A stretch of 64,000 nt of DNA from an uncultured Candidatus Saccharibacteria bacterium (GTDB lineage Bacteria > Patescibacteriota > Minisyncoccia > Phycocordibacterales > UBA2100), in assembly GCA_964350885.1 (NCBI GenBank), contig CAYGKV010000003.1:15444-79443 (forward strand). Direction: 5' to 3'. Below are positions 3,271 to 56,447 of the stretch, piece after piece. The number at the start of each line of letters is the position of its first letter. The stretch's first letter is position 1. The position numbers were made by a program, and so were the translations under genes. The notes below the pieces were generated by a model. The model saw only the letters and a program-made list of their open reading frames with translations. It had not been told where the DNA came from and did not search any database.

Positions 3271-3342
3271 GCCCTCGTAGCACAATGGATAGTGCAGACC
3301 CGTCCTAAGGGTACGATTTCGGTCCGATTCCGGACGAGGGCA
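3271..3342 (+). tRNA. tRNA-Arg (anticodon CCT)
   Basis: Acceptor GCCCTCG/CGAGGGC, D-stem GCAC/GTGC, anticodon loop GTCCTAA (U33, CCT, A37), T-arm TTCGG-TCCGATT-CCGGA, discriminator A. Confidence 0.8.
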
Positions 3343-5786: not shown

Positions 5787-7049
5787 TTACCCGAGAGAAG
5801 AAAACAAGTGCTCGGCGATGCGGTCGGCGGGAAGAGTGATCTCGTGGCCGCTTGAGAGATTTTTGATCGTGTAGCGACCCGAATCCCGCTCTTTTGCCCC
5901 GACAGCGATCATAAAGGGGATCTTCATTTTGTCGGCTTGTCGAATCTGATCTCCGACTCGTTTTCCAGAAAAGTTGACGGCGACGGTCACGTCTTCACGC
6001 CGCAGACTCTGTGCGAGCTGTATCGCGTGCGATGTTGCATCTCCCTCTACGACGCAGATCATGAGTTCGGTCGAGGGAGAGTACGCGGGCATGAGGTTGT
6101 GGGTCTCTAGGAAGTCGCGCGCGGTCACATCTCCCATGGCGAAGCCAACGGCAGGAATAGGGTCACCTCCGAAGAGGGAGAGAAGACTGTCGTATCGGCC
6201 ACCTCCGAAGAGTGATCGGCGATTTTTCTCGTCGGTATCGTATACCTCAAAGACCATGCCGGTATAGTAATCGAAGCCACGCGTGATTTTTGTGTCCACC
6301 ACCATGTTGCGCACCCCCATGTGCTCGAGCGTCGTGCGCAATTCCTCGAGGTATGCGGTGGAAGTCGTGAGATCCAATTGCTCGATAATTCTTGACGCCA
6401 TATTAGAACTTCCGACTGAGCGTTCGAGCTGCTTTTCAAAATCCTCAATCTTTGCGCGGCGATCCAAAAGTCGTGTCGTTTCCGCACGGGAAGCGGAGGG
6501 AACGCCGACCGTATCGTAAATCGCGTCGAGGATGCGCCGGTCCGATACTCGTATCTCAAAATTGCGCTCGTCGGCACCGAGACTACGCAAGATGCCGTGC
6601 GCAACGGCGATTACCTCGGCATCTGCTTCCACGCCGGGTATGCCCACGATGTCGGCGTTTAGTTGCCAGTGCTCGCGGAGTCGCCCGTGTTGGGGGCGTT
6701 CGTACCGAAAGACGTTTGGAATCGAGTACCAACGGGCAGGTAGGGGAATTTCTCGTTGTTTGGCCGCGATCATACGCGCAAACGTTGGCGTCATCTCCGG
6801 GCGCAGCGTTACTTCGCGATTACCGCGGTCGGTGAAAGTGTACGTCTGTTCATTCACAATCTCCTCAGACGTCTTGCTCCGGTAAAGCTCTGCCGGCTCC
6901 AAGAGCGATGCGTTGTACTCTTCGTAGCCGAATAGCTCGCAAATTCGCTCCATGTGTTCAAATATATATCGCTGGACGAATTGATCTTCGGGATAAAAAT
7001 CGCGGACCCCCTTGTAGCTCTCGGTAGAAAGCGCATCGCGTTTTGTCAT
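5787..7049 (-). CDS. hisS: Histidine--tRNA ligase
   Basis: Class II aaRS motifs: GVRDFYPED, TFTDRGNREVTLRPEMTPTFARM, the HisRS-specific RWYSIPNVFRYERPQHGRLREHWQ, and a C-terminal anticodon-binding domain. Confidence 0.9.
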   Translation of the reverse strand: MTKRDALSTESYKGVRDFYPEDQFVQRYIFEHMERICELFGYEEYNASLLEPAELYRSKTSEEIVNEQTYTFTDRGNREVTLRPEMTPTFARMIAAKQREIPLPARWYSIPNVFRYERPQHGRLREHWQLNADIVGIPGVEADAEVIAVAHGILRSLGADERNFEIRVSDRRILDAIYDTVGVPSASRAETTRLLDRRAKIEDFEKQLERSVGSSNMASRIIEQLDLTTSTAYLEELRTTLEHMGVRNMVVDTKITRGFDYYTGMVFEVYDTDEKNRRSLFGGGRYDSLLSLFGGDPIPAVGFAMGDVTARDFLETHNLMPAYSPSTELMICVVEGDATSHAIQLAQSLRREDVTVAVNFSGKRVGDQIRQADKMKIPFMIAVGAKERDSGRYTIKNLSSGHEITLPADRIAEHLFSSLG

Positions 7050-12498: not shown

Positions 12499-15400
12499 AT
12501 GAATATTAGTATCTTTGGTCGCACGCAGTCCTTGCTCGGTAAGGCGGGATCTATCGTTGTCATATTGACGCTCGCTGTAACTCCTCTTTCACAAGCGTTC
12601 CCTCTCGTGGCGAATGCGTTGGATACGGGCTTCAATTCTCCCAGCGCAACACACACACCGAATTCCTGGGTGAACGGGCTCAACGCAACGTCAAGTAACA
12701 ACATTTATGCAACATCAACAGCAAATGGTAGCGAACAAGGGTATGCCACTTTCGGCATCCCGGCCATCGCTATAGGATCAACGATTGATGGCATTGAAGT
12801 ATCTATTGATGCAAAGGCCGACGACAACGATTGTGATATTGGGGTCAGGCTCTCGTGGGACGGTGGCGCTACCTGGAGTTCTCAGATCGTAAATACGACG
12901 ATAGGAACAAATGAGGATTCCGAGACTTTCGGTGGCCCCTCAAGTCAGTGGGGTCGTGCCTGGGTGGAGGGCGATTTCACAAACTCTAACTTTGTTGTAA
13001 AAATCCAAGCTATCGACGGCGATGGAGCCGCCAATGGATCTAGCGACTGTCAGGCGGCAAGCGATAAGCTGTACGCAGATGTAGTCCAAGCGAAGGTATA
13101 CTATTCTGCACCGGTACTCAATCCCGGCACATCCGTTGTCATCAACACGATTTCCGATCCTATCAGCGGAACGTATACAGCTCCGTTCCCAACGTTCTCT
13201 TGTCCGGCAAACCCGCTCTACAACCCGGTAAGCATCACGGGGAGTGGCACAGGTTCGGCACCTCCAGGCAACATCAGTCAGTACAAAGTACAGATTGATT
13301 GGGGAGATGGGATCATCGAAAACACCGCAACCTCGACATTTACCCCGAATGCCGGGCAGGGGAACTTCTCTTTCGTATTTAATGGTCAGCATACTTATAC
13401 AACCAATGGGAACATGGTGATAAAGGCTCGCCTCTACCACTCGCAGCCACCGGGGGGCGACAACCAGGCTGATGCTGTGATCTCGATCACGACCTGTATC
13501 TTCGTCCCTCCTGCAAATACTGCGGTAGTACTTGTAAACAAAGTCGTGAACGGTGGCCCTGCTGTACCGAGCGACTTCACGCTCAATGTCACCAATGCTA
13601 GCTCAACGCCGAGCTCCTTCAATCCATCAACAGCGACCACGACCGTCGTCATTACTCCAGGCGCGTATTCGATTACCGAGGCTCCAGCAGCGAACTACAC
13701 ACCGACGTATTCGTCTGGATGTTCCGGTACGTTGACGATTGGCTCGACGACGAAATGTCTCGTCACCAATACTTACGTTCCTCCTACCACTGGTATGCTC
13801 ACGCTCGTAAAGCAGGTCACCAATAACAACGGCGGGACAGCTGCTGCAGGCGCATGGACGCTTGCCGCTTCGAGCACCTCGGGCACCACGGTTATTTCTG
13901 GGGTTACGGGCGCGGGTGCGGTAACAAACGCTACGGTCGCTCCGGCCGCATACGACCTCTCAGAGTCAGGCGGACCTTCTGGCTACACAGCTTCTGCATG
14001 GGTCTGCACAGGAACTGGTACACAAAATGATGGAGATACGGTTACACTCGCAGCTGGCCAAAGCGCGACCTGTACCATCACCAACGACGATGTGGCTCCG
14101 GTGCTCACACTCATCAAGAACCTCATCCAAGACGAGGGAGGCGCAGCATTCCATGTCCTTGCTGATTGGCTCCTTTCCGCAAGCAGCACCTCCAACAACA
14201 CACTCACGGCGTTTTCAGGTGCGTCCGGTGTGACGAGCGATAGTACTTTCAAGGCTGGTGTGTACACGCTTGCAGAGTCTGGTCCTTCTGGATACACCGC
14301 GAGCGGCTGGGTATGCCCAAGCGGCAACCTCTCGGGAGCTTCTCTCACCATCGGTCTTGGCGAAAACATCACCTGCACAATCACCAACGACGACATCGCT
14401 CCGACGTTGACTCTCGAAAAGACAGTCGTGAATCTCGACGGTGGTACTGCAGGCGAGTCCGATTTCCAAGGAAAAATTGACGGCTCTGATGTTGCATGGG
14501 ACACACCGATTACACTTACTGCGGGGGCTCACACAGCATCTGAAGCTAGTGGCGTTTCTGGATACTCTGCTTCCGCATGGGGCGGAGATTGTGCTGAAGA
14601 TGGGACGATCACGCTTTCTCCAGGGCAAGATGCGGTCTGTACCATCACCAACGACGACATCGCGCCGGGGCTTACCATTAAGAAAGTAGTCACGACCGAC
14701 AATGGCGGCAATGAGACCTCTGCCGCTTTCCAAGGATATGTAGAAGGCAATCCAGTCGCTTGGAATGACGCGCAGGTACTCGAAGCGGGGACATACACAT
14801 TGAGCGAAGACGCTGTTGCCGGCTATCAGCAATCGGCATGGGTCTGCGTAGGGGGATCTCAAAGCGGAAGCGACATAACGATAGGTGTAGGAGAGACGGT
14901 TGAGTGTACTATCACCAACGATGACATCGCTCCTTCAATCACGCTTATCAAAGAGGTTACCAACGACAACGGTGGTACTGCCGGAGCAAATGATTTCGGT
15001 CTTTCCATTGGTGGTACTTCGGTTGAGTCGGGGGAGACGCTCGCGGTTGATTCCAACGAAGCAATTTCTATCGATGAGCTTGGGCTCGCGGACTACGCTT
15101 TCGCTTCAATTACCGGGGATGAAGGATGTCCATCAGAACTCGGTGGCACAGTAATGCTGGACGAAGGTGAAGACATCACCTGCACTATCATCAACGACGA
15201 CATCGCACCGTCTCTTACACTCAATAAGATTCGCATTAACGATGATGGCGGCACACAAGCGGAGAGCGCATGGACATTGACAGCAACAGGTAATCAAGAG
15301 CCTCCGGTAGTTCTCTCTGGTCCCGGCGCGGCTGGTTCGACAGATGTCGTTTCCGGTGCGACGTTCAAGGCTGGCACATACACGCTCTCCGAGAGCGGTC

Positions 15401-16629
15401 CCGAAGGCTATGCGGCTTCAGCATGGAGCTGTGTCAAGAATGATGGCGACCCTGTCGAGGGAAGCTCGATAGCGCTTGCGATTGGAGACGAAGCTACATG
15501 TACCATCACCAATGACGACAGCGAGGCGGTGCTCAAGATTGTTAAGAACACAATCGGCGGCAACGGCACGTTCGGATTCGACGTCTCAGGAGGCAACGAC
15601 TTTGCCACCACGACGAGCGTCACGACGGTCGAAAATACTGGTTCTGTCGACATCGCGCTCGAAGCCGGCACATATGACGTATCAGAAAACGTCCCTGCCA
15701 ATTGGGATCTCACGAATATGGTCTGTAATGAATCGGGGATTGAGGTCAACAACACTGATTCCGAAGTAATGCTTGGGGTCGGCGATACCGTGACCTGTAC
15801 CTTCACCAACGCATCCACACTCGCCAATGTTTCAGTAGAGAAATCTGTCGACGATGCGTCTCCAGACGCTGGCCAGCAGGTAACCTTCACACTCACAGTT
15901 ACGAACAGTGGTCCGGCTACTGCTACGGATGTTGAAGTTACCGATGTCTTGCCTTCAGGCTTGACCTACGTTTCTGACAACGGCGCGGGTGCTTACGCCA
16001 CTTCAACTGGAATCTGGACAATCGGCACGCTCCTGAGCGGTTCGTCTACGGCCCTGAGTATCGTAGCGACCGTCAACGCGTCGGCCGGACAAACGGTAAC
16101 GAATACCGCATCCGTTACGACCGAGAACACAGATTCTGACACTGAAAACAACACCGACGGTGTGTCTATAACAGTCAATACTCCTCCAGCTCCTCCTTCG
16201 GGTGGTGGCGGTGGCGGCGGAGGCGGAGGTGGTGGCCTAAACAATCCTATCTACGGTGTACCAGGGCAAGTCTTGGGCGCAGCGACATCAACGCTTCCCG
16301 AGCTCCCTGCAGGTTGTTCAGCACTTCTCAACACCTACATGCGCATGAATAAGAGCAATAACTCCGCATCTGAAGTCGCGAAACTCCAGCAATTCTTGAA
16401 CGACACCATGAAGGCGGGGCTTCCTGTCACGGGCTTCTTCGGATCCGCGACCGATAAGGCGGTACGCGCATTCCAAACGGCAAATTCCGAGCAAGTTCTC
16501 GCACCGTGGGGATTGAAAGCGCCGACAGGATTCGTGTACAAGACGACTCAGCGCTGGATCAACCTCCTCCACTGCCAGTCGCTCAACATTCCAATGCCCA
16601 CGGATCTCACCCCGTACCGAGGCGAATAA
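12499..16629 (+). CDS. Giant cell-surface adhesin-like protein: signal peptide, ~9 tandem prealbumin-like (SpaA/SdrD-B-type) repeats, DUF11 domain, poly-Gly linker, C-terminal peptidoglycan-binding (PG_binding_1) domain
   Basis: 1376 aa. The signal is MNISIFGRTQSLLGKAGSIVVILTLAVTPLSQA. A unit containing G.YTLSE.GP.GY.AS.W.C...TCTITNDDIAP recurs every ~90-105 aa. DUF11 is recognised by NVSVEKSVDDASPDAGQQVTFTLTVTNSGPATATDVEVTDVLPSGLTYV. A G12 run follows, then LQQFLN...GLPVTGFFGSATDKAVRAFQ. Confidence 0.8.
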   Translation: MNISIFGRTQSLLGKAGSIVVILTLAVTPLSQAFPLVANALDTGFNSPSATHTPNSWVNGLNATSSNNIYATSTANGSEQGYATFGIPAIAIGSTIDGIEVSIDAKADDNDCDIGVRLSWDGGATWSSQIVNTTIGTNEDSETFGGPSSQWGRAWVEGDFTNSNFVVKIQAIDGDGAANGSSDCQAASDKLYADVVQAKVYYSAPVLNPGTSVVINTISDPISGTYTAPFPTFSCPANPLYNPVSITGSGTGSAPPGNISQYKVQIDWGDGIIENTATSTFTPNAGQGNFSFVFNGQHTYTTNGNMVIKARLYHSQPPGGDNQADAVISITTCIFVPPANTAVVLVNKVVNGGPAVPSDFTLNVTNASSTPSSFNPSTATTTVVITPGAYSITEAPAANYTPTYSSGCSGTLTIGSTTKCLVTNTYVPPTTGMLTLVKQVTNNNGGTAAAGAWTLAASSTSGTTVISGVTGAGAVTNATVAPAAYDLSESGGPSGYTASAWVCTGTGTQNDGDTVTLAAGQSATCTITNDDVAPVLTLIKNLIQDEGGAAFHVLADWLLSASSTSNNTLTAFSGASGVTSDSTFKAGVYTLAESGPSGYTASGWVCPSGNLSGASLTIGLGENITCTITNDDIAPTLTLEKTVVNLDGGTAGESDFQGKIDGSDVAWDTPITLTAGAHTASEASGVSGYSASAWGGDCAEDGTITLSPGQDAVCTITNDDIAPGLTIKKVVTTDNGGNETSAAFQGYVEGNPVAWNDAQVLEAGTYTLSEDAVAGYQQSAWVCVGGSQSGSDITIGVGETVECTITNDDIAPSITLIKEVTNDNGGTAGANDFGLSIGGTSVESGETLAVDSNEAISIDELGLADYAFASITGDEGCPSELGGTVMLDEGEDITCTIINDDIAPSLTLNKIRINDDGGTQAESAWTLTATGNQEPPVVLSGPGAAGSTDVVSGATFKAGTYTLSESGPEGYAASAWSCVKNDGDPVEGSSIALAIGDEATCTITNDDSEAVLKIVKNTIGGNGTFGFDVSGGNDFATTTSVTTVENTGSVDIALEAGTYDVSENVPANWDLTNMVCNESGIEVNNTDSEVMLGVGDTVTCTFTNASTLANVSVEKSVDDASPDAGQQVTFTLTVTNSGPATATDVEVTDVLPSGLTYVSDNGAGAYATSTGIWTIGTLLSGSSTALSIVATVNASAGQTVTNTASVTTENTDSDTENNTDGVSITVNTPPAPPSGGGGGGGGGGGGLNNPIYGVPGQVLGAATSTLPELPAGCSALLNTYMRMNKSNNSASEVAKLQQFLNDTMKAGLPVTGFFGSATDKAVRAFQTANSEQVLAPWGLKAPTGFVYKTTQRWINLLHCQSLNIPMPTDLTPYRGE
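13500..15820 (+). repeat. Intragenic tandem repeats (~265-320 bp period, about 9 units) inside the adhesin gene
   Basis: The codon block acctg(t/c)ac(c/a)atcaccaacgacgacatcgc(t/g)ccg (TCTITNDDIAP) recurs at 14071, 14371, 14635, 14902, 15178 and 15496, with degenerate copies at about 13760 and 15790. Confidence 0.8.
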
Positions 16630-16705: not shown

Positions 16706-17797
16706 GTGAGAAAAAAGAACCGAAACGTTTCTCGGCTCCGTTCGTTGTTGCCTCGTGGTAAGCGGGAGCGCAGACGTATAGAGCTTTTAGGCGGACTCGC
16801 GATGGGTGTTTTCTCGGCGCTCGTTGTATCCATCTTCGTAGCCTCTTCCATCGATCGCTATCTCGTCAGCTCGAATCAGTATGCATCCGTGATCGCGGGA
16901 GTGCTCGTAGATCTGACGAACGGAGACAGGGCGCAGAATAATTTACACACGCTTACGATGAGTACGGCGCTTGTTGCAGTCGCTCAAGCGAAGGCAAATG
17001 ACATGGCGGCGAAGAGCTATTTCGCGCATGTCTCTCCCGAGGGGCTCGACCCGTGGCACTGGTTTAAGCAGGCAGACTACGCTTTTGATTACGCGGGAGA
17101 AAATCTCGCAGTCGACTTCTCCGATTCGGTCGACGTGGAGCGGGCGTGGATGAATTCGCCGACACACCGCGAAAACATTCTCAACCCGAAATTCACCGAG
17201 ATCGGCATCGCTACCGCTGAGGGGATATTTCAAGGGCGCTCCACGACCTTCGTGGTGCAGGCATTTGGCACGCCATCAGAATCTGGTATCCAGCGTACAG
17301 TTATTGCCGTCAGTATTCCTGAGAGTCCAAACGAAACGGCGCTCGCCACCTCAGCTCCCCCGACGGTTCTCGGTGAGACACAGCAGCCTACGACTCCGGC
17401 CCCGATAGAGAAAAAATTAGTGCAGACGATTCAACCGAAAGAGGTCGAAGTTCTCGGGACTACGATCGAGACGAATACGCCCACGCCCAGCGCACCCACG
17501 CTCGCTGCGAGTGTAGAATCCTCGCCCGATTATGCGCCGATCTGGGCGCACCTTGCGACCTCACCGCGGAGCATGTTGCAGTACGCGTATTGGATACTCG
17601 CATTTTTGATAGTTGTCGCACTCGGGATTGCAACAGGGTTTGAATTGCACATCCACCATATTCGCAAAGCAACCTCCGCGGGCATCATGCTTTCTTTCAT
17701 GCTAGTGATGTTTCTTGCTGCCAATGTATTCGTCTTTACGAGCCCCACCCTCACGCCACAGGCGAGCATGGCCGCGGCTGCCGCGGGAGCGCATTAA
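16706..17797 (+). CDS. CAP/SCP (PR-1-like, YkwD-type) domain protein with N- and C-terminal TM segments
   Basis: CAP signatures AKSYFAHVSPEG...AGENLAV...VERAWMNSPTHRENIL.PKFTEIGIA; a Thr/Pro-rich linker; a C-terminal hydrophobic helix (YWILAFLIVVALGIATG). The true start is possibly the ATG at 16802. Confidence 0.7.
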   Translation: MRKKNRNVSRLRSLLPRGKRERRRIELLGGLAMGVFSALVVSIFVASSIDRYLVSSNQYASVIAGVLVDLTNGDRAQNNLHTLTMSTALVAVAQAKANDMAAKSYFAHVSPEGLDPWHWFKQADYAFDYAGENLAVDFSDSVDVERAWMNSPTHRENILNPKFTEIGIATAEGIFQGRSTTFVVQAFGTPSESGIQRTVIAVSIPESPNETALATSAPPTVLGETQQPTTPAPIEKKLVQTIQPKEVEVLGTTIETNTPTPSAPTLAASVESSPDYAPIWAHLATSPRSMLQYAYWILAFLIVVALGIATGFELHIHHIRKATSAGIMLSFMLVMFLAANVFVFTSPTLTPQASMAAAAAGAH

Positions 17798-17830
17798 CCC
17801 GCCTTGACGGGGGAGGGGGGAAGACGTACC

Positions 17831-18658
17831 ATGAAAGCGTTAATCGTAATCTCTTTTGCTATGAATAATGTCATTCGCACAGCACTTCCAACCGCCATCT
17901 TGGGCGCCGTCCTCCTCTTTGGTGTAGCAATCGCAGAAGCGAGTCATTCATGGGGGAGCTACCATTGGGCACGTCAATCGAATCCATTCACTCTCAAGCT
18001 CGGCGATAATGTATCGTCCGCGTGGGATTCGTATCTCACCACGACGTCAACCGAGTGGAGTCTTTCGAGCGTTCTCGATACGACCATTGTCACGGGGCTT
18101 GCCGGTAGGAATTGCAAAGCGACTACGGGACGCGTCGAGGTGTGCAACAGTAGATACGGCCAAAATGGCTGGCTTGGGCTCGCTCAGATTTGGATTTCTG
18201 GGACGCATATCACCAAGGGCTTGGCAAAGATGAATGACACCTATTTCAGTATGGCGCAGTACAACAACGCCGATGAAAAGCTTCATGTAATGTGCCAGGA
18301 AGTCGGCCACACCTTTGGTCTTGGTCACACGAGCGAAGATGGCACCTCGCAAGGGACGTGCATGGACTATTCGGATAGCCCGAGTAGCACGCTTCCAAAC
18401 CAGCACGACTACGACCAACTTGCGGCCATCTACGCGCATCTCGATTCCTTCAACTCTTTTAGCAGCGCCTTCTCTAGCGTGCGTGGCGCATCTGCCGAAG
18501 CACAGAGCGGAGATTTCGAGGACGCATCGGAGTGGGGTAAAGAGATCCATCGTTCAGCTAACGGTCGCTCGTCCGTGTTTGAGCGCGATCTTGGTAATGG
18601 CAACAGGCTCCTGACGCACATCTACTGGGCCGAGCCGCGCGGGCACCATCACGAATAG
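17831..18658 (+). CDS. Secreted metzincin-like protein (M43/cytophagalysin-like) with atypical QExxHxxGxxH site
   Basis: Signal peptide MKALIVISFAMNNVIRTALPTAILGAVLLFGVAIAEA; LHVMCQEVGHTFGLGHTSEDG (Gln where the first zinc-binding His is expected); a downstream Met-turn candidate GTCMDYSD. Confidence 0.55.
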   Translation: MKALIVISFAMNNVIRTALPTAILGAVLLFGVAIAEASHSWGSYHWARQSNPFTLKLGDNVSSAWDSYLTTTSTEWSLSSVLDTTIVTGLAGRNCKATTGRVEVCNSRYGQNGWLGLAQIWISGTHITKGLAKMNDTYFSMAQYNNADEKLHVMCQEVGHTFGLGHTSEDGTSQGTCMDYSDSPSSTLPNQHDYDQLAAIYAHLDSFNSFSSAFSSVRGASAEAQSGDFEDASEWGKEIHRSANGRSSVFERDLGNGNRLLTHIYWAEPRGHHHE

Positions 18659-18739
18659 TCGCATGTAAGGTTTGCGCCATTCACTCTGTTTTCTCTCGGA
18701 GTCTGTTTTTGTTGGTTGGCCCGCCAAGGTCGAGAATTC

Positions 18740-30345: not shown

Positions 30346-33282
30346 TCATCTTAACCCAATTATGACTGAATAAGTCTTACCATCCTCCAACTGTGCATAA
30401 ATACGATACCAGTACCCGGGCATTAAACCCTTTGTGCTCCAGTTATAAATGTACTGCTGGCTCGTGCCGTCCCATCGGTACGAAGTGCCACTCGTGCCGG
30501 CAACTGCGTACACGGGCTCGTCCACGGGTGCGTTCAGTGGCGAGAGTCTGACTGGAGTTATCCAAACGGGTGAAGCTGATGATTGAATAGGAGTGCCAGC
30601 GGTATTTTTGAGTTGAAACTTCACAGGTACGGTACTGCCGCCCTTAAACACGCTCGGCGTGAGTGCGGGGTTAATCGTAGGGTCATCGATGGGCTGTAGG
30701 AATCCGGTCCACAGATATTCTATTTTGAGCGTTCCTGCCACAAACTCCGTGAATTCGTAGTCATGTGAGGTAAGAGTGCCGATAGTGCATGTGATGGGGT
30801 AGATTCCAACCAGGCTCGCGCTGGTCGCCGTCGTTGAGCAACGCGCGCTTCCCGCGACGTCGTTGCTTGAGGGTGTGTCATCGCCGACGAATCCGCTCAG
30901 TGTCCACGTGAGAGGTGGAATTACTCCACCGATCATCATCGTCTTGTTGGCAGTCGTTAGAGTTAGTTTCGGTTTTGGTAGCACTACGGTGTCGTCCAGC
31001 TTAGGCACCACAATGTGCTCAACAATGCCGTCGCCGTTTTTGTCGATGAGGAGTGGATTTTCTTCAGACAGATCGATCGATGTCTCTATCGAGACGATGG
31101 TGTCGGGCGTCGTTGGCATATCTTTCCATGTGCTGCTTGCAACGACCGTATCACCTCGGAGCTGCTCAGCGCGGAAGGTGAAGGTGCCTGTCTCGTAGCC
31201 ATCCATCGTGATATGAAGCGAGGAGGTGGCATCTGTGAAAAGATATTTCACGTCACCGAACTCTGTGTAATACGTGCCGGGGATTTGTTCTTCCACCTGG
31301 CCGGTAGTCGTTGAAATGCCAGTGTGACGGCCCTGATTGTCGAATAGATCGAGCGTGAGCGGGGAGTGAAGGGAGTAGCGGAGGCGAGTGCCAGGGAACG
31401 AGGGCGATTCAGTGGTCAGGTATGAGTAATTTGAAATCGGCGACAGCTCATTTGTAACTGTATCGGAAATAAATGACAGCAGTTCCTGTATCTCGAGAAT
31501 ATCTGCATGACCGAAAGAGAGGAGGCCACCGAGTGTGGCAATCGGATGATGTTTGTTGTAGTCGTAGATGTTTGCCCAATAATTCACCGCACCTGCGGCA
31601 GCGCTCCACAAAGCGCTTGGCACAACCACGGTGCCATCGCCATCAATTGTGAAATTTGCTTCGGGCTTCACGCCCGCACCTTTTTGTTTGTATGTAATTC
31701 CGCTCACGGTCGTTGGCACGCCCCATCCGGCTATTTGGATCAAGTCTATTCCTGTTGGAGGAACCCAGTTGTCGAGATTGGCATGCAACGTTTCCGCTGC
31801 CGACAGGAGCGAATCGCTCATCTGGATGGGCTGATCTTTGTCACCCGTCTGGGAGTCGCCTCTCCCATAGGTATCGGTGAGAAATTGATGCAATGCGGGT
31901 CCTGAGTGGATTTCGTTTCCATACCTTGCTATCCAATCTGTCAGTGATGCATCGAATGTAACGACTGGATCATCCACATATGTGAAGTAATTGGCGGATG
32001 GTAGTAATTGATAGAACATTGGGGACGTACTTGCAAAAGTACGCACTGTCTCTTCAGAAAGAATGAACGAAATCACATCGGCAGGGAGCCCTTGATCATA
32101 TCCATGCAGTCCGGCAGCCACGGCCATCGGTGTACCTGCCTGCGGCACGGCCACAAAAATCATTTTGTCGATGAGGTCAGAAGCTTCTGCGCCAAGTACT
32201 TCGGTGAGTTGTTTGGCAAGTAATCCGCCGTTGGAGTGCGCTATGACTGTTACCTTCCCAGATTTTGAAGAGCCAGCGAGTCTCCGCAATTCCTGAATGA
32301 CGTACGGAGTGGATGTGGCGCGTTGGTTACCGGAATAATACAGCTTTCCACCCACCTCGTTTCCATACGCGAGGATGTCGTCGAGGGAGAGCCGCCAGTC
32401 GTAGGCCATGGGTTGCCAATCGTTTATATGGCCCTGATCTTTCAAGTCATCCATTTTTGAGATAAAGGACAGGTATATATTTTTGCCGGTCGGGAGTTCA
32501 TCAAGCACGTCGCCGATCTTTGTGTAGATCTCGGGATGGGCACTCGAACCGTCAGCGCTCATGAAGAGGTCTTGCACGTCGCCATTGTTGAGTGGCTCCC
32601 ACAGCTTTTGTTCAGGAACTTCGACTACCTGCGGTCGATACAAGCGGCTCGATTCGATACCGGGCAAGAAGAGCACGTTGGAAAAACAGTTTTGTGTGCA
32701 GAGCATTGGGGCCGGGCCGGGTTGGCCAGAAACCACGAAGTACCCCATCGTGGATGTCCCGTAGAAGGTTACGCCCGAACCCCCAACTTTCGATATCCGT
32801 AATGACGCGTGATCATAGACCAGGGGCAACGTCGTCGAAGCCGCTGCAGCAGCAGGGTTTCCTGCATCATCAGCTTGTCGGTAATTAAACAGACGGGGAG
32901 TAATTCCGGTAAATGGCGGAACGGCTACGGTCGTTTGGTACTGCTGTCCGGGTACACTCCAATTGTTGGTATTGGGGCAGGGCTTCGTCTCGGCCGCGTC
33001 AAGCCAACACAGAAGTCGGAGGCCTGCACGGTTAAACGGTGCAAAGAACGGGAATGTCCGATCGTCAAGGGCTATAATTTCGACGGTGTCTACTCGTGAA
33101 CCTCCGAGCGTGTTTGGGAGTGCAATTTGCCAGTAATTTCCAGTAGTGGTGATGGTTGTATAGATCTGTGAGCGATCTGTTTGCGAGAGTAGAACGTCGG
33201 CAAATGTATCGAGGGGGGATGCGAGCAGAACAAAAATTGTACCGAGGAGAGGGGAGGCGATACGCGACTGCGCGAGTCTCAT
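30346..33282 (-). CDS. Large secreted LCAT-like (lecithin:cholesterol acyltransferase / PF02450-type) alpha/beta-hydrolase lipase with shared C-terminal domain
   Basis: Signal MRLAQSRIASPLLGTIFVLLASPLDTFA; an LCAT N-motif VLFLPGIESSRL; the YDWRLS hallmark; a nucleophile elbow VTVIAHSNGGLLA (AHSxG as in Bacillus LipA); and the shared C-terminal domain ending ...QQYIYNWSTKG... Confidence 0.65.
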   Translation of the reverse strand: MRLAQSRIASPLLGTIFVLLASPLDTFADVLLSQTDRSQIYTTITTTGNYWQIALPNTLGGSRVDTVEIIALDDRTFPFFAPFNRAGLRLLCWLDAAETKPCPNTNNWSVPGQQYQTTVAVPPFTGITPRLFNYRQADDAGNPAAAAASTTLPLVYDHASLRISKVGGSGVTFYGTSTMGYFVVSGQPGPAPMLCTQNCFSNVLFLPGIESSRLYRPQVVEVPEQKLWEPLNNGDVQDLFMSADGSSAHPEIYTKIGDVLDELPTGKNIYLSFISKMDDLKDQGHINDWQPMAYDWRLSLDDILAYGNEVGGKLYYSGNQRATSTPYVIQELRRLAGSSKSGKVTVIAHSNGGLLAKQLTEVLGAEASDLIDKMIFVAVPQAGTPMAVAAGLHGYDQGLPADVISFILSEETVRTFASTSPMFYQLLPSANYFTYVDDPVVTFDASLTDWIARYGNEIHSGPALHQFLTDTYGRGDSQTGDKDQPIQMSDSLLSAAETLHANLDNWVPPTGIDLIQIAGWGVPTTVSGITYKQKGAGVKPEANFTIDGDGTVVVPSALWSAAAGAVNYWANIYDYNKHHPIATLGGLLSFGHADILEIQELLSFISDTVTNELSPISNYSYLTTESPSFPGTRLRYSLHSPLTLDLFDNQGRHTGISTTTGQVEEQIPGTYYTEFGDVKYLFTDATSSLHITMDGYETGTFTFRAEQLRGDTVVASSTWKDMPTTPDTIVSIETSIDLSEENPLLIDKNGDGIVEHIVVPKLDDTVVLPKPKLTLTTANKTMMIGGVIPPLTWTLSGFVGDDTPSSNDVAGSARCSTTATSASLVGIYPITCTIGTLTSHDYEFTEFVAGTLKIEYLWTGFLQPIDDPTINPALTPSVFKGGSTVPVKFQLKNTAGTPIQSSASPVWITPVRLSPLNAPVDEPVYAVAGTSGTSYRWDGTSQQYIYNWSTKGLMPGYWYRIYAQLEDGKTYSVIIGLR

Positions 33283-33396
33283 ACGGCATGTATACCACAC
33301 CGACGTTTTTCGGTGCTCGTGTCCCTGTGGATTGCCGACGTACACACCGAACCTACGCTATAGCGTAGGTTCGGTGTTTTCATTGCACAGGAATAA

Positions 33397-46589: not shown

Positions 46590-47681
46590 TTATTGTGCCA
46601 TACTTTTCAGCACTTTGAGATATAGATTTTCCACTATTTTTTGTTGAGCTTTGCCGCCTTTGACATAGTGATCGAGGCCGGGGGCGGCGTTGATTTCGAG
46701 TATCCAGTATGTGCGAGGTTTTTCGTGGATATCGCCGTCTACCATAAGATCCACTCCACACAAGCGAAGGCCCATATCTTTCGTGAGCTTGATCGCGATC
46801 TTTTTGAATGCAGGGTGGATGTGTTTCGTCACATCGATCGAATCGCCGCCGGAAGAGAGATTTGCGTTGTCCAAAAGGAATATTCGCTCGCCGCGTTTTG
46901 GAATCGTCGTCAAGGCCCGGCCTTGGTGTTTGAGCTTGTTTACGATACGCGGGTCATTAATTTTGATGCGTGTATCACGACTTGAGGCAATAAACGCGCG
47001 GGCTTTTTTCGCGAGAAGTTGTCGAATGGTCGAGCGGCCATCGCCCACTACATTGAGTGGGATGCGTTCATATGCGGAGATGATCTCATTGTCCAAGACG
47101 ACGACGCGGTAATCCTTGCCCCGAACGGCTTGTTGGACCAAAGCTACTTTGTCGTTCTTGAAAATGGACCGAAGTGCGCGGAAGAATTCTTGCTTGCTGT
47201 GAACGAGAGAAACACCAACGCCCTGGCTCCCGCTATTTGGTTTTACTATGACCGGAAATCCATTCTTTTTTGCGTAGCGGTATGCCGCACCAATGTCACG
47301 CTTTGAGCCTATCGCAGCGCACCACTCATCAGAATAGAAAGATTTGCCAGGAATGGTTGGGTACCCCATGCGGCGCATGAAGAACGTTGCATAGTCTTTG
47401 TCCTTTGAAATATCTGCAGAGCCGACGGGGTTCAGATCGAGTGTGTTGTAGCGGAAGTATCGATTTTTGCCGTTTTTATAGTGTATCTGTCCCGCGATGT
47501 TCCATTCCGGTTCGAGTACGACCCTTGCTCCAATTTTGGGCGCAAGACGCTGGAGCATTTTTGCGAGGACAAGACTTTCGGGCTTTCTCTTCATGTGCGG
47601 TATCATGGCACAATCGGACATATTGCCTGTATTGACAATCCGTACGAAAGTAGTATCATGAACCATGGTAAATCGAATCAT
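46590..47681 (-). CDS. ATP-grasp domain protein (RimK / cyanophycin-synthetase-N-like)
   Basis: ATP-grasp core FPVIVKPNSGSQGVGVSLV...RVVVLDNEII...YWILEINAAPGL; its start region overlaps the purL start divergently. Confidence 0.6.
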   Translation of the reverse strand: MIRFTMVHDTTFVRIVNTGNMSDCAMIPHMKRKPESLVLAKMLQRLAPKIGARVVLEPEWNIAGQIHYKNGKNRYFRYNTLDLNPVGSADISKDKDYATFFMRRMGYPTIPGKSFYSDEWCAAIGSKRDIGAAYRYAKKNGFPVIVKPNSGSQGVGVSLVHSKQEFFRALRSIFKNDKVALVQQAVRGKDYRVVVLDNEIISAYERIPLNVVGDGRSTIRQLLAKKARAFIASSRDTRIKINDPRIVNKLKHQGRALTTIPKRGERIFLLDNANLSSGGDSIDVTKHIHPAFKKIAIKLTKDMGLRLCGVDLMVDGDIHEKPRTYWILEINAAPGLDHYVKGGKAQQKIVENLYLKVLKSMAQ

Positions 47682-50613
47682 CGTCTCCTCAAAGATTCCC
47701 GATGCCAGAGCACAGAGCTACCTCCACACTCTGCAGACCAGGTTTCCTGAAAGCGGCTTGAAGGCCGCTTCTCTCATACAAGTCTATACAGTCGATGCGC
47801 GATGCTCTACCGCTGAACTGGAAAAAGCTGCCCAGCGACTTGCAAATCCGATCACCGAACGCTACATACTCGGTAATATTCTTGAGCCGGAATCATACGC
47901 CTTCGCGATCGAGATCGGGTATCTACCCGGCGTTACCGACAATGTAGGAAGGACTGCGCAAGAGACCATCGAGGATTCGATCGACAGGAAATTTGCAGAA
48001 GGCGAACATGTGTATGCATCGGTCATCTTGTTTCTCGAAGGTGATATGCGGGAAGGTGAGGCCGCCCGGTTTGCGCGTGAGCTTCACAACCCCCTTATCG
48101 AACGAGCCAAGATTTTTTCATACGAACACAACGAGTTTCCAATAGAGGTCCCCAAAGTGACGCTCCAGAAAGCCAAAATCGGCACTATCGAAGTGGATTT
48201 GAATGTTCCCGACGAAGAACTCATGAAGATTGGCAAGCAGGGGATTGCGAACATCAATGGCACACGCCGCGGTCCGCTCGCGCTCTCGCTTCGCCAGCTC
48301 AAAGTAATACGGGATCATTTCATAAGACAAAAAAGGAGTCCGACCGATATCGAATTGGAATCGCTTGCCCAGGCATGGTCGGAGCACTGCAAACACACGA
48401 TCTTTGCCGATCCCTTGGACGAAGTGAAAGAGGGGATTTACAAACGCTACATAAAAGGCGCGACGGAAAAGATACGGAAACAAAAAGGCAAAAAGGATTT
48501 TTGCGTGTCGGTGTTTAAAGACAACTCCGGCGCGATTGCGTTTGACGAAAAATACCTTGTCACGCACAAAGTAGAAACCCACAATTCTCCTTCAGGACTC
48601 GATCCTTTTGGTGGATCGGTGACCGCGATCGTTGGTGTGAATCGTGATTGTCTGGGGTTTGGGCTTGGTGCGAAACCAATCGCCAACGTCTACGGTTTTT
48701 GTGTTGCCGATCCAAATGATTCTACCGAGCTGTACCGCGATATTGGCAAAACGCAGCCACTCTTGCCCGCCCGGCGGATTCTCGAAGGAGTGATTCACGG
48801 TGTGAATGCAGGTGGCAACCAAAGCGGGATCCCCACCCCACTCGGATTTATCGCGGTGGACCCGAGCTACCGTGGCAAGCCACTCGTTTTTGGCGGCACG
48901 GTCGGTCTCGTTCCCCGAAAGAAAGGTTCGAAGAAATTGTATGAGAAAAAGGCGAAGCCAGGAGATTACATCGTGATGCTCGGTGGTCGCGTCGGGCTCG
49001 ACGGCATTCATGGGGCAACCTTCTCTTCCGAGTCTCTCTCGGGGGGCTCTCCCGCTACCGCAGTACAAATCGGGGATCCTATTACGCAAAAGAAGCTCTC
49101 GGATGTGCTTATCCGCGAGGCGCGCGACAAGGGACTCTATTCGAGCATCACCGACGATGGCGCGGGCGGACTTTCGGGTTCGGTGGGCGAAATGGCGCGC
49201 GAGAGCGGCGGGGCGGCTGTCGACATCGAGAAAGTCCCGCTGAAATATCCGGGCCTCGCCCCGTGGCAAATATGGATCTCCGAATCACAGGAGCGCATGA
49301 CGCTCGCAGTACCCAAGGTGAAGTGGGTGGCATTCAAGAAGATTTGTGATCGGCACGATGTGGAGGCGACGCGCATCGGGGAATTCACGAAATCAAAGCG
49401 ATGTATCGTCCGTTCCAACAAAAAGAACATTTTGGATATTTCACTCGACTTTTTGCACGAAGGTCGACCTATCGAACAGCAAAAGAGTATCGAACCAAAA
49501 CGCATTCCATTAGCCGCGAAGGATATCTCGGAAGAGTCAGCGCAGGCGCTTCTGCGCATGCTTTCGGGGCCAAATGTGGGTTCCATCGCTTTTGTATCCC
49601 AGCAATACGATCACGAGGTGCAGGGCACATCGGTCACAAAGCCGCTGCATGGTCGCGGTCGGGTGAATGCAGATGCGGCAGTTTTGCAACCATTGCCGGA
49701 TTCAGAAAAGGGGATCGTGCTCTCGCATGGGTACACACCGTGGTACTCGGTGATCGATACATACGCGATGGCTGCAGCGGCGATCGACACGGCAGTGCGC
49801 AACTCGATCGCCGCAGGTGCATCGCGCGATTACCTCGCAATTCTCGACAACTTCTGCTGGTCGTCTTCGGAGACACCCGAGCGTTTGTATGAGTTGAAAC
49901 GGGCAGCAAAGGCCTGTTACGACGTAGCAGTCGCGTACGGCACCCCTTTTATTTCAGGCAAGGATAGTATGTTCAACGATTTCCGCGGATACACTGAGGA
50001 TGGAAAGCTTATTCACATCGCGGCACTTCCCACACTTCTCGTTTCTGCGATCGGTGTTATTCCCGATGTCGAGGAATCTATGACCATTGATTTCAAGTGT
50101 GTCGGTGATTTGGTCTACGTCATTGGCGAGACCCACGACGAGCTTGGTGCATCCGAGTACTTCCAGATATCGGGATTTACGAAATCCCGATATGGAAAAG
50201 TGCCGGTCGTTGATATAAAAAAGAACGCAAAGGTCTACGACGCGGTGTCTAGGGCAATACAAAAGGGTTTTGTCGCATCTGCGATCGGTGTTGGCCGCGG
50301 CGGACTCGCCGTGGCGCTTTCAAAGTCGGCTATCGCAGGACAGCTAGGCACACAAGTCGATCTCACAAAGCTTCCCGGCAACGCGGAAACCCCAGAAGCG
50401 ATTCTTTTTTCTGAAAGTCAGGGCCGTTTCGTCGTTTCTGTACCTCGGAGCGTGCAGAAAGAATTCGAGAACATGTTCAAAGGCATAGCACTCTCGAACG
50501 TCGGGGAAGTCGTACAGGCGGCGTCTGTCTCCATCGCACTGCCGCAGGAAAAGGTTGAGCTTTCGCTTTCCACGTTGACCGAGAGCTATAGGTCGTTCTT
50601 CAAGAATTGGTAA
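47665..50613 (+). CDS. purL: Phosphoribosylformylglycinamidine synthase PurL with an N-terminal PurS-like extension (PurS-PurL fusion)
   Basis: 982 aa. The PurL AIRS-like domains are present (GIPTPLGFIAVDP, SITDDGAGGLS). The ~200-aa N-terminal extension resembles PurS / the lgPurL N-domain. Confidence 0.8.
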   Translation: MVNRIIVSSKIPDARAQSYLHTLQTRFPESGLKAASLIQVYTVDARCSTAELEKAAQRLANPITERYILGNILEPESYAFAIEIGYLPGVTDNVGRTAQETIEDSIDRKFAEGEHVYASVILFLEGDMREGEAARFARELHNPLIERAKIFSYEHNEFPIEVPKVTLQKAKIGTIEVDLNVPDEELMKIGKQGIANINGTRRGPLALSLRQLKVIRDHFIRQKRSPTDIELESLAQAWSEHCKHTIFADPLDEVKEGIYKRYIKGATEKIRKQKGKKDFCVSVFKDNSGAIAFDEKYLVTHKVETHNSPSGLDPFGGSVTAIVGVNRDCLGFGLGAKPIANVYGFCVADPNDSTELYRDIGKTQPLLPARRILEGVIHGVNAGGNQSGIPTPLGFIAVDPSYRGKPLVFGGTVGLVPRKKGSKKLYEKKAKPGDYIVMLGGRVGLDGIHGATFSSESLSGGSPATAVQIGDPITQKKLSDVLIREARDKGLYSSITDDGAGGLSGSVGEMARESGGAAVDIEKVPLKYPGLAPWQIWISESQERMTLAVPKVKWVAFKKICDRHDVEATRIGEFTKSKRCIVRSNKKNILDISLDFLHEGRPIEQQKSIEPKRIPLAAKDISEESAQALLRMLSGPNVGSIAFVSQQYDHEVQGTSVTKPLHGRGRVNADAAVLQPLPDSEKGIVLSHGYTPWYSVIDTYAMAAAAIDTAVRNSIAAGASRDYLAILDNFCWSSSETPERLYELKRAAKACYDVAVAYGTPFISGKDSMFNDFRGYTEDGKLIHIAALPTLLVSAIGVIPDVEESMTIDFKCVGDLVYVIGETHDELGASEYFQISGFTKSRYGKVPVVDIKKNAKVYDAVSRAIQKGFVASAIGVGRGGLAVALSKSAIAGQLGTQVDLTKLPGNAETPEAILFSESQGRFVVSVPRSVQKEFENMFKGIALSNVGEVVQAASVSIALPQEKVELSLSTLTESYRSFFKNW

Positions 50614-54127: not shown

Positions 54128-55063
54128 ATGAATGAAGTACTAAAAGAAACACATTTTTCGTCCCTCGGCGAGAAGAAAATAGGAAAGGTGCGCGATATCT
54201 ACATTCAGCCCGAGCGGCTGATTTTGGTTACAACAGATCGCCATTCCTCCTTTGACCGTATCATTGCGCACATACCGTGGAAGGGACAGGTATTGAATCA
54301 GATAAGTGCGTGGTGGTTTGAGCAGACGAAGGATATTGTGCCGAATCATGTACTCGCAGTGCCCGATCCAAATGTTACTGTCGCGAAAAGGATGAAAATA
54401 GTGCCAATAGAAGCCGTGGTGCGAGGTTATCTCACAGGAGTGACGGATACAGCGATTTGGACACGATACCAAAACGGTGTGCGCACGTTTGGCAATATGG
54501 CGTTGGCTGATGGCTTGAAGAAGAACATCAAACTACCGCATCCCGTATTTGACCCCACGACCAAAGAGGATACGCATGATAGGACAATTTCTCAAGAACA
54601 GATGGTTGCAGAACGGCTCATTTCCGCAGAGCTTCTCGAAAAAGTAAAACATACGGCGACGGCACTCTTTTTGCGAGGTCAGAAGGTGGCGGCTAAGCGT
54701 GGTCTTATTCTCGTCGACACGAAGTATGAATTTGGCACGGACGAAAAAGGAAATCTTGTTTTGATAGACGAAATACACACGCCCGATTCTTCGCGTTACT
54801 GGCAAATCGAAGGGTACGAAGAGAGTCTCGCCAAGGGCAGTGAGCCCAAAAGTTTCGACAAAGAATTTTTACGTCTGTGGTTTAAGGAGCACTGCGATCC
54901 GTACAAAGATGCGGTATTGCCAGAAGCACCTCAGGAGCTTGTGGAAGAGCTCTCGCGGCGGTACATTCAGATGTATGAACAAATTACCGGTACACAATTC
55001 ATACCCGGCGAGACGCCCGTGCTTTCGCGCATGGAGCGCAATTTAAAATCATATGCCGCTTGA
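54128..55063 (+). CDS. purC: SAICAR synthetase PurC (long form)
   Basis: GKVRDIY...LILVDTKYEFG...DTPDSSRYW. Confidence 0.85.
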   Translation: MNEVLKETHFSSLGEKKIGKVRDIYIQPERLILVTTDRHSSFDRIIAHIPWKGQVLNQISAWWFEQTKDIVPNHVLAVPDPNVTVAKRMKIVPIEAVVRGYLTGVTDTAIWTRYQNGVRTFGNMALADGLKKNIKLPHPVFDPTTKEDTHDRTISQEQMVAERLISAELLEKVKHTATALFLRGQKVAAKRGLILVDTKYEFGTDEKGNLVLIDEIHTPDSSRYWQIEGYEESLAKGSEPKSFDKEFLRLWFKEHCDPYKDAVLPEAPQELVEELSRRYIQMYEQITGTQFIPGETPVLSRMERNLKSYAA

Positions 55064-56447
55064 AGCACTTACCGCAATCACATCTGTAGACGGTCGGTAC
55101 CGTGGAATGGTGGAGGGGTTGGCGGAATATTTTAGCGAGTACGCACTCATTCGTGCCCGTGTGCGTGTCGAGTGCGCGTATCTCGTCGCGCTGTCGGAGA
55201 ATCCAGGTACGGGGATGAGGCAGCTTACCGCAGAGGAGCGAGGCATGTTGGAAAATATCGCGACGGTCTCCTTAGAGGATGCGCACATAGTGAAGAAAAT
55301 AGAAAAAGAGGGCTACGACGGGATAGCGGCGACCAATCATGACGTGAAGGCGGTGGAATATTTCATTAAGGGAAAGTTGGCGAAGACGTCGCTCGCGAAC
55401 GTTTCCGAGTGGACGCATTTTGCGCTTACCTCAGAAGACATAAACAGCGTCGCGTACGGATTGCTTTTGCGAGACGCTTTGGAAAAGGTCGTCTTGCCCG
55501 CACTTGCCGATATCCGCACACATCTGGACGCACTCGCACGCGAGCATGCTATAACGCCTATGCTTGCACGCACGCACGGCCAGCCTGCTTCACCGACTAC
55601 GTTTGGAAAGGAAATGAGAGTCTTTGAAGCGCGTATCGCGCGGCAACTTGTGGGACTTACGAAATCCCACATCTTAGTGAAATTTGGCGGAGCGACAGGT
55701 AACTACAACGCGCACATGGTTGCGGTTCCGGATGTTGATTGGCAAGCGTTTGCACAGAAGTTTATTGTGGGTCTCAGTGGCGAAAATACTATCTCTATCG
55801 AATTGAATCCGGTCACAACGCAGAGCGAGCCGCACGACACCTATGCGGAGCTTTTCGACAATCTTCGCCGCATCAATACGATTCTCGTCGATCTTTCTCA
55901 AGATATGTGGCGCTACATCAGCGATGGGTGGCTTTCTCAGAAGACGAAAGAAGGAGAAGTGGGATCTTCGGCAATGCCGCACAAGGTCAATCCTATTGAT
56001 TTTGAAAATGCGGAGGGGAATCTAGGTGTTGCGAATGCATTGTTTGGACATTTCTCACTCAAGCTCCCGATTTCACGCTTGCAGCGCGACCTCTCGGACT
56101 CGACTGTACTGCGCACGTTTGGCACTGCATTTGCCCACTCACTTATCGGTTATCAAGCGCTTTCCCGAGGCCTGGGGAAGGTGAGTGTCAACACGGAGAC
56201 AATGTTAGAAGCGCTCCAATCACATCCCGAGGTAATCGCGGAGGCAATACAGACTGTCCTCCGGAAAGAAGGGGTTGAAGTGCCCTACGAGCAACTCAAG
56301 ATGCTTACGCGCGGAAGGAAAGTATCGCTAGAAGATTTCGCAAAGTTTATTGACGGTCTCGACATCGATGAGAAAGTGAAGATGCACCTAAAAGGAATCC
56401 GACCAGAAAACTACATCGGCCTTGCGTCAGAAATTGCTGGGAAATAG
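55053..56447 (+). CDS. purB: Adenylosuccinate lyase PurB
   Basis: SPLDGRY-like N-terminus (TSVDGRY) and the fumarate-lyase signature GSSAMPHKVNP. Confidence 0.9.
   Translation: MPLEALTAITSVDGRYRGMVEGLAEYFSEYALIRARVRVECAYLVALSENPGTGMRQLTAEERGMLENIATVSLEDAHIVKKIEKEGYDGIAATNHDVKAVEYFIKGKLAKTSLANVSEWTHFALTSEDINSVAYGLLLRDALEKVVLPALADIRTHLDALAREHAITPMLARTHGQPASPTTFGKEMRVFEARIARQLVGLTKSHILVKFGGATGNYNAHMVAVPDVDWQAFAQKFIVGLSGENTISIELNPVTTQSEPHDTYAELFDNLRRINTILVDLSQDMWRYISDGWLSQKTKEGEVGSSAMPHKVNPIDFENAEGNLGVANALFGHFSLKLPISRLQRDLSDSTVLRTFGTAFAHSLIGYQALSRGLGKVSVNTETMLEALQSHPEVIAEAIQTVLRKEGVEVPYEQLKMLTRGRKVSLEDFAKFIDGLDIDEKVKMHLKGIRPENYIGLASEIAGK

Follow-up and report, generated by a model that had tools for sequence, protein, structure and literature searches.

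We analyzed a 64,000-nt stretch of DNA (hereafter, the window) from an uncultured Candidatus Saccharibacteria bacterium (GenBank assembly GCA_964350885.1, contig CAYGKV010000003.1, forward-strand positions 15,444 to 79,443), which contains a gene for a secreted, metzincin-like protein with an altered metal-binding motif. The defining feature of metzincins is the ligation of zinc by three His residues (or by two His and one Asp). In the window protein, Gln146 stands where HExxHxxGxxH has its first metal-binding His. Alignments together with codon comparisons show that a Gln at this site is the norm, kept with strict conservation, in a very large and as yet unnamed bacterial family of secreted proteins with a predicted metzincin fold. 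On balance, we lean towards the view that the protein is an active secreted metzincin-fold metalloendopeptidase, with QExxHxxGxxH as the normal metal-binding motif of its family and Gln146 as a candidate metal ligand.

The coding sequence, including its stop codon, spans positions 17861..18658 of the plus strand and encodes a 265-aa protein with 100% identity to the database protein P0001. It lies within a longer plus-strand open reading frame (ORF; 17804..18658, 284-aa numbering). Residue numbers refer here to the 265-aa protein; adding 19 converts them to the ORF numbering. ATG 17861 is the likely translation start, favored because its 265-aa product equals P0001 and aligned with most homolog starts, while ATG 17831 (14 nt 3′ of a GGAGG sequence) and TTG 17804 represent upstream alternatives. 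Within this frame, the codons CAG GAA GTC GGC CAC ACC TTT GGT CTT GGT CAC at 18296-18328 encode QEVGHTFGLGH, exactly as a first-pass annotation of the window had read them. From the codon reading and alignments, the extended motif comprises Gln146 (CAG, 18296..18298), the putative general base Glu147, His150, Gly153 and His156. The annotation had further proposed a CMDY Met-turn 13 residues downstream. This element (Cys167, Met168, Asp169 and Tyr170) is indeed present, encoded by TGC ATG GAC TAT at 18359..18370 (+); its distance from the third His is 12 residues for Met168 or 11 for Cys167, rather than 13.

A homology search returned at least 7,998 proteins at E ≤ 0.001, and the query was aligned with the best 120 homologs (54-76% identity). 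Gln was found at position 146 in all 121 aligned sequences, and E147, H150, G153, L154, H156, C167, M168, D169 and Y170 were invariant across the same homologs. Scanning 1.84 billion cluster representatives exhaustively with a profile, we obtained 2,778 50%-identity clusters at E ≤ 0.001, of which 571 also passed E ≤ 1e-30; among the best 150 clusters, about 132 carried Gln and 15-16 His. When relatives with a readable motif were pooled (n = 487), 469 were of the Gln type and 18 of the His type, corresponding to ~96% Gln. A large His-type sister clade was sought by searches seeded with two His-type members and was not found, as the neighbors were almost all Gln-type (115/118 and 111/111). The ortholog alignment suggested in the first-pass annotation as a check on the Gln thus ruled out a uniformly His-bearing set of orthologs.

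Codon usage pointed in the same direction. Locus counts, here and below, refer to the best 80 loci of a genome scan. Codon 146 was CAG in 52, CAA in 27 and CAC or CAT in none of the 79 loci with a readable motif (36-72% GC), with CQE being part of one of the three patterns used in the scan. In these loci, the codons of Gly149 and Gly153 used all four third bases, and those of His150, His156, Cys145 and Glu147 used both synonymous forms. Since the Gly codons range over all four third bases and the Gln codon is restricted to CAG and CAA, Gln itself is under purifying selection; given the saturation of synonymous sites, the single transversion to His is selected against. These data bear on a further proposal, foreshadowed in the annotation: the Gln would stem from faulty sequencing or assembly, or from a His-to-Gln change newly arisen in this strain within an otherwise canonical HExxH protease. 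The proposal draws on the fact that CAG is one transversion away from CAT or CAC. It was refuted, and we assign it virtually no probability: besides the Gln in 120/120 nearest homologs and 469/487 relatives and the CAA/CAG codons in 79/79 loci, an identical 798-nt gene with CAG was present in three other assemblies (Logan ERR3094295, ENA ERZ27247817 and ERZ27247830).

The remaining active-site residues are also preserved. Gln-type members of the aligned set retain E147 in 368/369, H150 in 369/369, H156 in 367/369, M168 in 363/365 and Y170 in 332/363 cases. The near-invariance of the catalytic Glu, the two His residues and the Met-turn Met argues against a dead protease. Among the options offered for the window gene was a pseudo-protease without catalytic activity, whose fold would serve for binding, whether as an adhesin or decoy or to bind metals or peptides. 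It would agree with the absence of the canonical first ligand, with the location of the gene among surface-protein genes, which loosely recur next to relatives, and with the lack of an evident propeptide or latency device, unusual for an active secreted protease. We nevertheless judge it quite improbable. Glu, both His residues, Met and Tyr are almost invariant in several hundred sequences from several phyla, residues that pseudo-enzymes normally lose, and the algal enzyme VMP3, introduced below, is described as active with an identical motif. Such a loss did occur in one relative, P0186, where the site has decayed to CHGIGRSLGLGN and the Glu and both His residues are gone; P0186 has the appearance of a true pseudo-enzyme, or of a pseudogene, and illustrates decay in this family.

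The identity of residue 146 is linked to that of the Met-turn. In the aligned set, residue 168 is Met in 363 and Ile in 2 Gln-type members, as opposed to Leu in 13 and Met in 6 His-type members; the corresponding values for the 487 relatives are 468 Met and 1 Ile versus 13 Leu and 5 Met (Fisher p = 5e-18 for the association between residues 146 and 168, with kinship ignored). Other positions shift as well in His-type members: Thr mostly replaces A108, a residue of the predicted beta strand 104-113, Ala mostly replaces G120, and Y170 and H182 are less conserved. From the covariation of residue 146 with residues 168 and 108, we regard position 146 as part of a co-evolving cluster around the metal site, and Met168 appears to be needed specifically alongside Gln. 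The role of the Met-turn Met in metzincins is still debated, and the Gln plus Met and His plus Leu forms constitute a natural experiment on metzincin metal selectivity and on the function of this conserved residue.

His-type members are scattered through the family, and the nearest neighbors of each are Gln-type. A neighbor-joining tree analyzed by Fitch parsimony put the number of Gln/His changes at 9 or more, with Gln as the state at the root, a rough estimate from a query-centered sample with midpoint rooting. Two His-type proteins with a Leu-turn, P0272 and P0159, are encoded in tandem on a 3.9-kb contig (L082:2079-3794, Logan SRR20217185), which shows that duplicated paralogs occur among the rare HExxH forms.

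Four Cys residues (C85, C95, C145 and C167) are invariant. Cys145 (TGC, 18293..18295, +) lies directly 5′ of the Gln codon and adjoins Gln146 in the protein, while C167 adjoins Met168. Judged from these positions, a Cys145-Cys167 disulfide likely ties the Met-turn to the active-site helix. Cys85 and Cys95 make up the second invariant pair.

Structure prediction, also suggested in the first-pass annotation, was performed with AlphaFold2 on a 120-sequence alignment and returned a metzincin topology (predicted local distance difference test (pLDDT) 86, predicted template modeling score (pTM) 0.84). The predicted catalytic domain, assigned from this topology and Foldseek, covers residues 28-195 (17942..18445, +). 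Its elements are a strand (43-50), a helix (53-66), four further strands (72-78, 91-97, 104-113 and 116-125) and an active-site helix (137-150) that carries Gln146, Glu147 and His150; after this helix come the loop bearing Gly153, His156 and Met168 and a C-terminal helix (181-190). In a Foldseek search of the Protein Data Bank (PDB), the top 50 matches were all metzincins (probability 0.96-1.0) and included the matrix metalloproteinases (MMPs) MMP-1, -2, -3, -8 and -13, karilysin, myroilysin, serralysins, astacins and archaemetzincin. For MMP catalytic domains, E values started at 1e-4, with probabilities of about 1.0 and target-normalized TM scores of 0.53-0.59. The sequence at 18296 is more than a chance motif: it lies where the predicted active-site helix ends, with the Gly turn, third His and Met-turn coming next in a metzincin topology, and it consists of invariant residues.

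Assignment to an established family was not possible at the sequence level. No Pfam or NCBIfam model matched the query at threshold, and the NCBIfam scan gave noise only. The Pfam scores stayed below the respective gathering cut-offs for Reprolysin_5 (19.3 versus 27 bits), Peptidase_M10 (PF00413; 17 versus 24) and Peptidase_M43 (PF05572; 16.9 versus 23). Among the 120 relatives, sub-threshold matches at E ≤ 0.01 were distributed over Reprolysin_5 (72), Reprolysin_2 (58), M10 (56) and M43 (24), and two relatives, P0068 and P0082, have a precomputed PF00413 match. The M43/cytophagalysin type named in the first-pass annotation did not hold up, with reprolysin-like and M10 models scoring similarly on the query and M43 appearing in just 24/120 relatives. 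Membership in M10, in the reprolysin-like M12B group (PF13688, PF13574, PF13583 and PF13582) and in M43 was rejected, every score being under the gathering threshold. M11 was rejected as well: Peptidase_M11 (PF05548) had no query match at E ≤ 10 and was absent from the families matched by the 120 relatives at E ≤ 0.01. The query shares the VMP3 form of the motif and lacks the M11 domain match, a resemblance in mechanism and not in membership. Sequence and profile searches of the PDB gave marginal matches around the motif only, with adamalysins at E = 0.06-0.26 (best, 1kuf at E = 0.06).

Relative to the features that define the metzincin clan MA(M), the protein agrees with HExxHxxGxxH/D at 10 of 11 defining positions, the first ligand (Gln) being the exception; Met168 follows His156 by 12 residues as a Met-turn, and the fold corresponds in AlphaFold2 element order and by Foldseek. 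By sequence and model, the protein is a divergent metzincin-fold member of an undescribed family, outside M10, M11, M12 and M43 by the tests run. All sources that name its relatives use ‘hypothetical protein’, and no description of a bacterial QExxH metzincin was found in the searchable literature, the coverage of which leaves out most subscription journals.

We then compared the family with characterized systems. Volvox carteri VMP3, of the gametolysin family M11, contains QEXXHXXGXXH, is active and reportedly prefers copper over zinc (Heitzer & Hallmann 2002, J Biol Chem 277:28280, as described in 10.1101/2020.06.30.165720). No other natural enzyme has been reported with Gln as its first ligand residue, and in Volvox the Gln form is described as exceptional. 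VMPs have an M11 domain. Quantum-mechanical modeling of MMP-8 H197Q suggests that Cu(II) coordination is more stable in the mutant. The window protein and VMP3 have in common the extended motif and the character of a secreted or extracellular metalloproteinase, predicted in our case. They differ in that VMP3 is a green-algal protein with a hydroxyproline-rich module, and no sequence relation to the bacterial family was detected; the Gln state therefore most likely arose independently. Moreover, Gln is exceptional in Volvox, whereas it is the rule among bacterial members (~96% of those sampled). The sole reported first-ligand exception is thus one algal, copper-preferring enzyme, and the same exchange is normal throughout a very large family of bacterial proteins that lacks annotation.

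Matrixins (M10A: MMP-1, -3, -8 and -13) and karilysin are the best structural matches (Foldseek E 1e-4 to 5e-4), with the same order of strands and helices and a weakly aligning C-terminal helix (LPxQxDxDxxxAIY). They differ from the query by their HExxHxxGxxH motif; the query lacks a Cys-switch propeptide, has a CMDY in place of an ALMYP Met-turn and adds two conserved Cys pairs and a C-terminal beta module. Astacins (M12A) and serralysins (M10B) share the M-x-Y Met-turn and are both among the Foldseek matches, but show no significant sequence similarity; the query has neither the HExxHxxGxxHExxRxDRD extension nor an RTX domain and carries Gln as the first ligand. Adamalysins and reprolysin-like proteins (M12B; Reprolysin_2 to Reprolysin_5) provide the best profile similarity around the motif and also place a Cys just before the Met-turn, yet they score below gathering thresholds, with similarity confined to about 30-50 residues around the motif. 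Another metzincin off the three-His rule is snapalysin (M7), the small secreted neutral protease of Streptomyces, with HExxHxxGxxD plus a Tyr. There, the third ligand is substituted and here the first, and no similarity was seen in the searches made here.

Among the options raised for the window gene, an unusual metal ligation in a catalytically altered enzyme is the one favored by the evidence, including the VMP3 precedent, which the first-pass annotation did not cite. In the mechanism that we propose, the carboxamide of Gln146 would bind the catalytic metal in place of the imidazole of the first His, with His150, His156 and possibly Tyr170 as co-ligands. Glu147 would act as the general base on metal-bound water, Met168 would support the metal site from below, and a probable Cys145-Cys167 disulfide would staple the Met-turn onto the active-site helix. 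In astacins and serralysins, a Tyr two residues past the Met serves as fifth zinc ligand. Tyr170 has the same spacing from Met168 and is, by analogy, a possible fifth ligand. Because a nitrogen donor would be exchanged for a neutral oxygen donor, metal preference or Lewis acidity should change. By analogy with VMP3, the preferred metal may be copper, or else some other metal than zinc. The data directly show the motif with its strict conservation, the fold prediction, the secretion signals and the selection for Gln; peptide cleavage, Gln as a direct ligand and a metal preference unlike that of zinc metzincins are all features that we infer from sequence, model and analogy.

Several points weigh against this assignment. 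Gln is a rare and weak metal ligand, and H29, H35, H116, H182 or H193 could provide a ligand in its place. The AlphaFold2 model places no metal, and the location of Gln146 relative to His150 and His156 is taken from predicted secondary structure. The Pfam metzincin matches are all below gathering scores, and for every member activity and ligation are predictions from sequence and model. The analogy to VMP3 is drawn from the motif, with no detectable relation between the families. In addition, many hosts are anaerobic groundwater Patescibacteria; the scarcity of Cu(II) in anoxic habitats of many carriers weakens the copper analogy.

A specific alternative, which we consider rather unlikely, is a zinc peptidase in which Gln146 is a non-ligand in the second shell, hydrogen-bonded to water, substrate or Met168, and the third or fourth ligand would be supplied by Tyr170, Asp169, H29, H35, H116, H182 or H193. 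It gains from the presence of five extra His residues (H29, H35, H116, H182 and H193) that are invariant or nearly so, from the fifth-ligand role of the M-x-Y Tyr in astacins and serralysins, and from the mature N-terminus X-His-S-W-G-x-Y-H-W-A-R being the most conserved segment outside the active site. However, His-type members equally retain extra His residues (H35 in 19/19, H116 in 18/19 and H193 in 18/19), and we found no compensating His specific to Gln-type members. As the extra His residues are common to both types, none of them looks like compensation for the missing first His; they may instead form a second, structural site. Residue 146 also stands on the helix (i, i+4 with His150) exactly where every metzincin has its first ligand, and its covariation with the Met-turn puts it in the site.

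Beyond the active-enzyme reading with Gln146 as ligand, which we continue to favor, a wider proposition is put forward as a tentative possibility. Here, Gln would be the ancestral, selected first ligand, obligatorily paired with the Met-turn Met, in a cross-phylum class of metzincin-fold proteins that arose independently of the algal precedent and relies on a metal other than zinc, such as copper, Fe, Mn, Co or Ni, or coordinates its metal by a chemistry of its own. If true, this would be the first prokaryotic metzincin family with a non-canonical ligand, and its members would count among the main enzymes secreted by ultra-small episymbiotic bacteria. The family comprises about 8,000 or more 90%-identity clusters, occurs in at least 591 species genomes and is dominant in Patescibacteria. 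Since one carrier, Nocardioides gansuensis, is in culture, the hypothesis is open to direct testing.

Outside the active site, the protein begins with a signal peptide (residues 1-27, MNNVIRTALPTAILGAVLLFGVAIAEA; 17861..17941, +), read from the sequence, with predicted cleavage before Ser28. It ends in A-E-A (A-x-A), with A25 and A27 kept at positions -3 and -1 across homologs, and the signal peptide of the 265-aa protein contains no lipobox Cys; AlphaFold2 places a low-confidence N-terminal helix at residues 5-20. The conserved mature N-terminus follows (SHSWGSYHWAR, residues 28-38; 17942..17974, +), in which W31, Y34, H35 and W36 are invariant in the alignments. Across homologs, the segment reads A-x-A followed by [S/N/T]-H-[S/A]-W-G-x-Y-H-W-A-R, so that the second residue past the predicted cleavage site is His (His29). 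In peptides such as GHK, N-terminal X-His arrangements can bind Cu(II). A second string, AEASHSWGSYH (residues 25-35), also fits xExxHxxGxxH and was dismissed as a chance match, its Glu not being conserved.

The predicted catalytic domain is followed by a Ser/Ala/Thr-rich low-complexity linker of variable length and low model confidence (residues 196-224; 18446..18532, +) and a C-terminal three-stranded beta module (residues 225-256; 18533..18628, +) with conserved W225, G226, T252 and W256. AlphaFold2 places the strands of this module at 227-231, 237-245 and 248-256, with pLDDT about 90. The protein ends in a His-rich tail, RGHHHE, with three His residues at 262-264 (18644-18652) that are His in 7-11 of 121 aligned sequences; this tail may be an accessory metal-binding element. 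Upstream of the gene, a promoter-like TTGACG, 17-nt spacer and TACCAT (17804..17832, +) and, 25 nt past the stop codon, a terminator-like hairpin followed by a T run (18683..18702, +) were recognized from consensus matches.

Relatives were detected by the genome scan in at least 591 species genomes, mainly of Patescibacteria, and the nearest relatives of the window protein are labeled as such. Patescibacteria or candidate phyla radiation (CPR) lineages (Saccharibacteria, Nomura-, Kaiser-, Gottesman-, Woesebacteria and others) accounted for 49/80 loci. Metagenome-assembled genomes labeled Gammaproteobacteria or Pseudomonadota contributed 12/80, Acidobacteriota 6/80, Actinomycetota, including the cultured N. 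gansuensis WSJ-1, 4/80, Chloroflexota 4/80, and other or unclassified sources 5/80. With this distribution, the family would rank among the most widespread secreted enzymes of Patescibacteria, organisms with poorly understood host interactions.

In the window, the gene lies within a run of genes for secreted or surface proteins, including MG2-like and PG-binding/fn3-like (Pur_ac_phosph_N) proteins, with a type IV pilus or type II secretion system PilC-like gene nearby. Immediately upstream is a gene for a CAP/SCP-domain protein with a C-terminal membrane segment (16706-17797). The product of another gene (12499-16629) is secreted, is 1,376 aa long and combines eight SpaA_2 prealbumin-like repeats with SpaA_4 and DUF11 domains, a run of ~13 Gly residues and a C-terminal PG_binding_1 domain. 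Comparable genes recur near family members, with SpaA-like giant proteins at 15/80, CAP-domain proteins at 8/80, PilB-like proteins at 8/80 and PilC-like proteins at 5/80 loci, and a CAP-domain gene is also close to the family gene in all three other assemblies of the organism. These neighbors suggest a role at the cell surface. The associations are loose, without a conserved operon partner across the 80 loci, and no metal-homeostasis gene recurred among them. At the N. gansuensis WSJ-1 locus, a MerR-family regulator gene is located directly upstream on the same strand (L049:5071-5586; family gene at about 5935-6687), a neighbor found at no other of the 80 loci. Its Cys residues in and after the dimerization helix (GGANCAG, AAECRTDLSCCVP) suggest a metal-sensing type.

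Three further features of the window concern other functions. De novo purine genes were identified at 47665-50613 and 55053-56447, encoding an FGAM synthase-like protein (AIRS/AIRS_C/FGAR-AT linker) and an adenylosuccinate lyase. Patescibacteria are generally described as lacking nucleotide biosynthesis, and purine genes would be unusual if the source organism belongs to this group. ARAGORN called a tRNA-Arg(CCT) at 3271-3342, while the Rfam tRNA model at gathering threshold gave Gly and Phe tRNAs and not Arg. Lastly, a minus-strand gene at 30346-33345 encodes a 999-aa protein with an LCAT-like lipase/acyltransferase region and an MBG (YGX-type) domain, which is probably a large extracellular enzyme.

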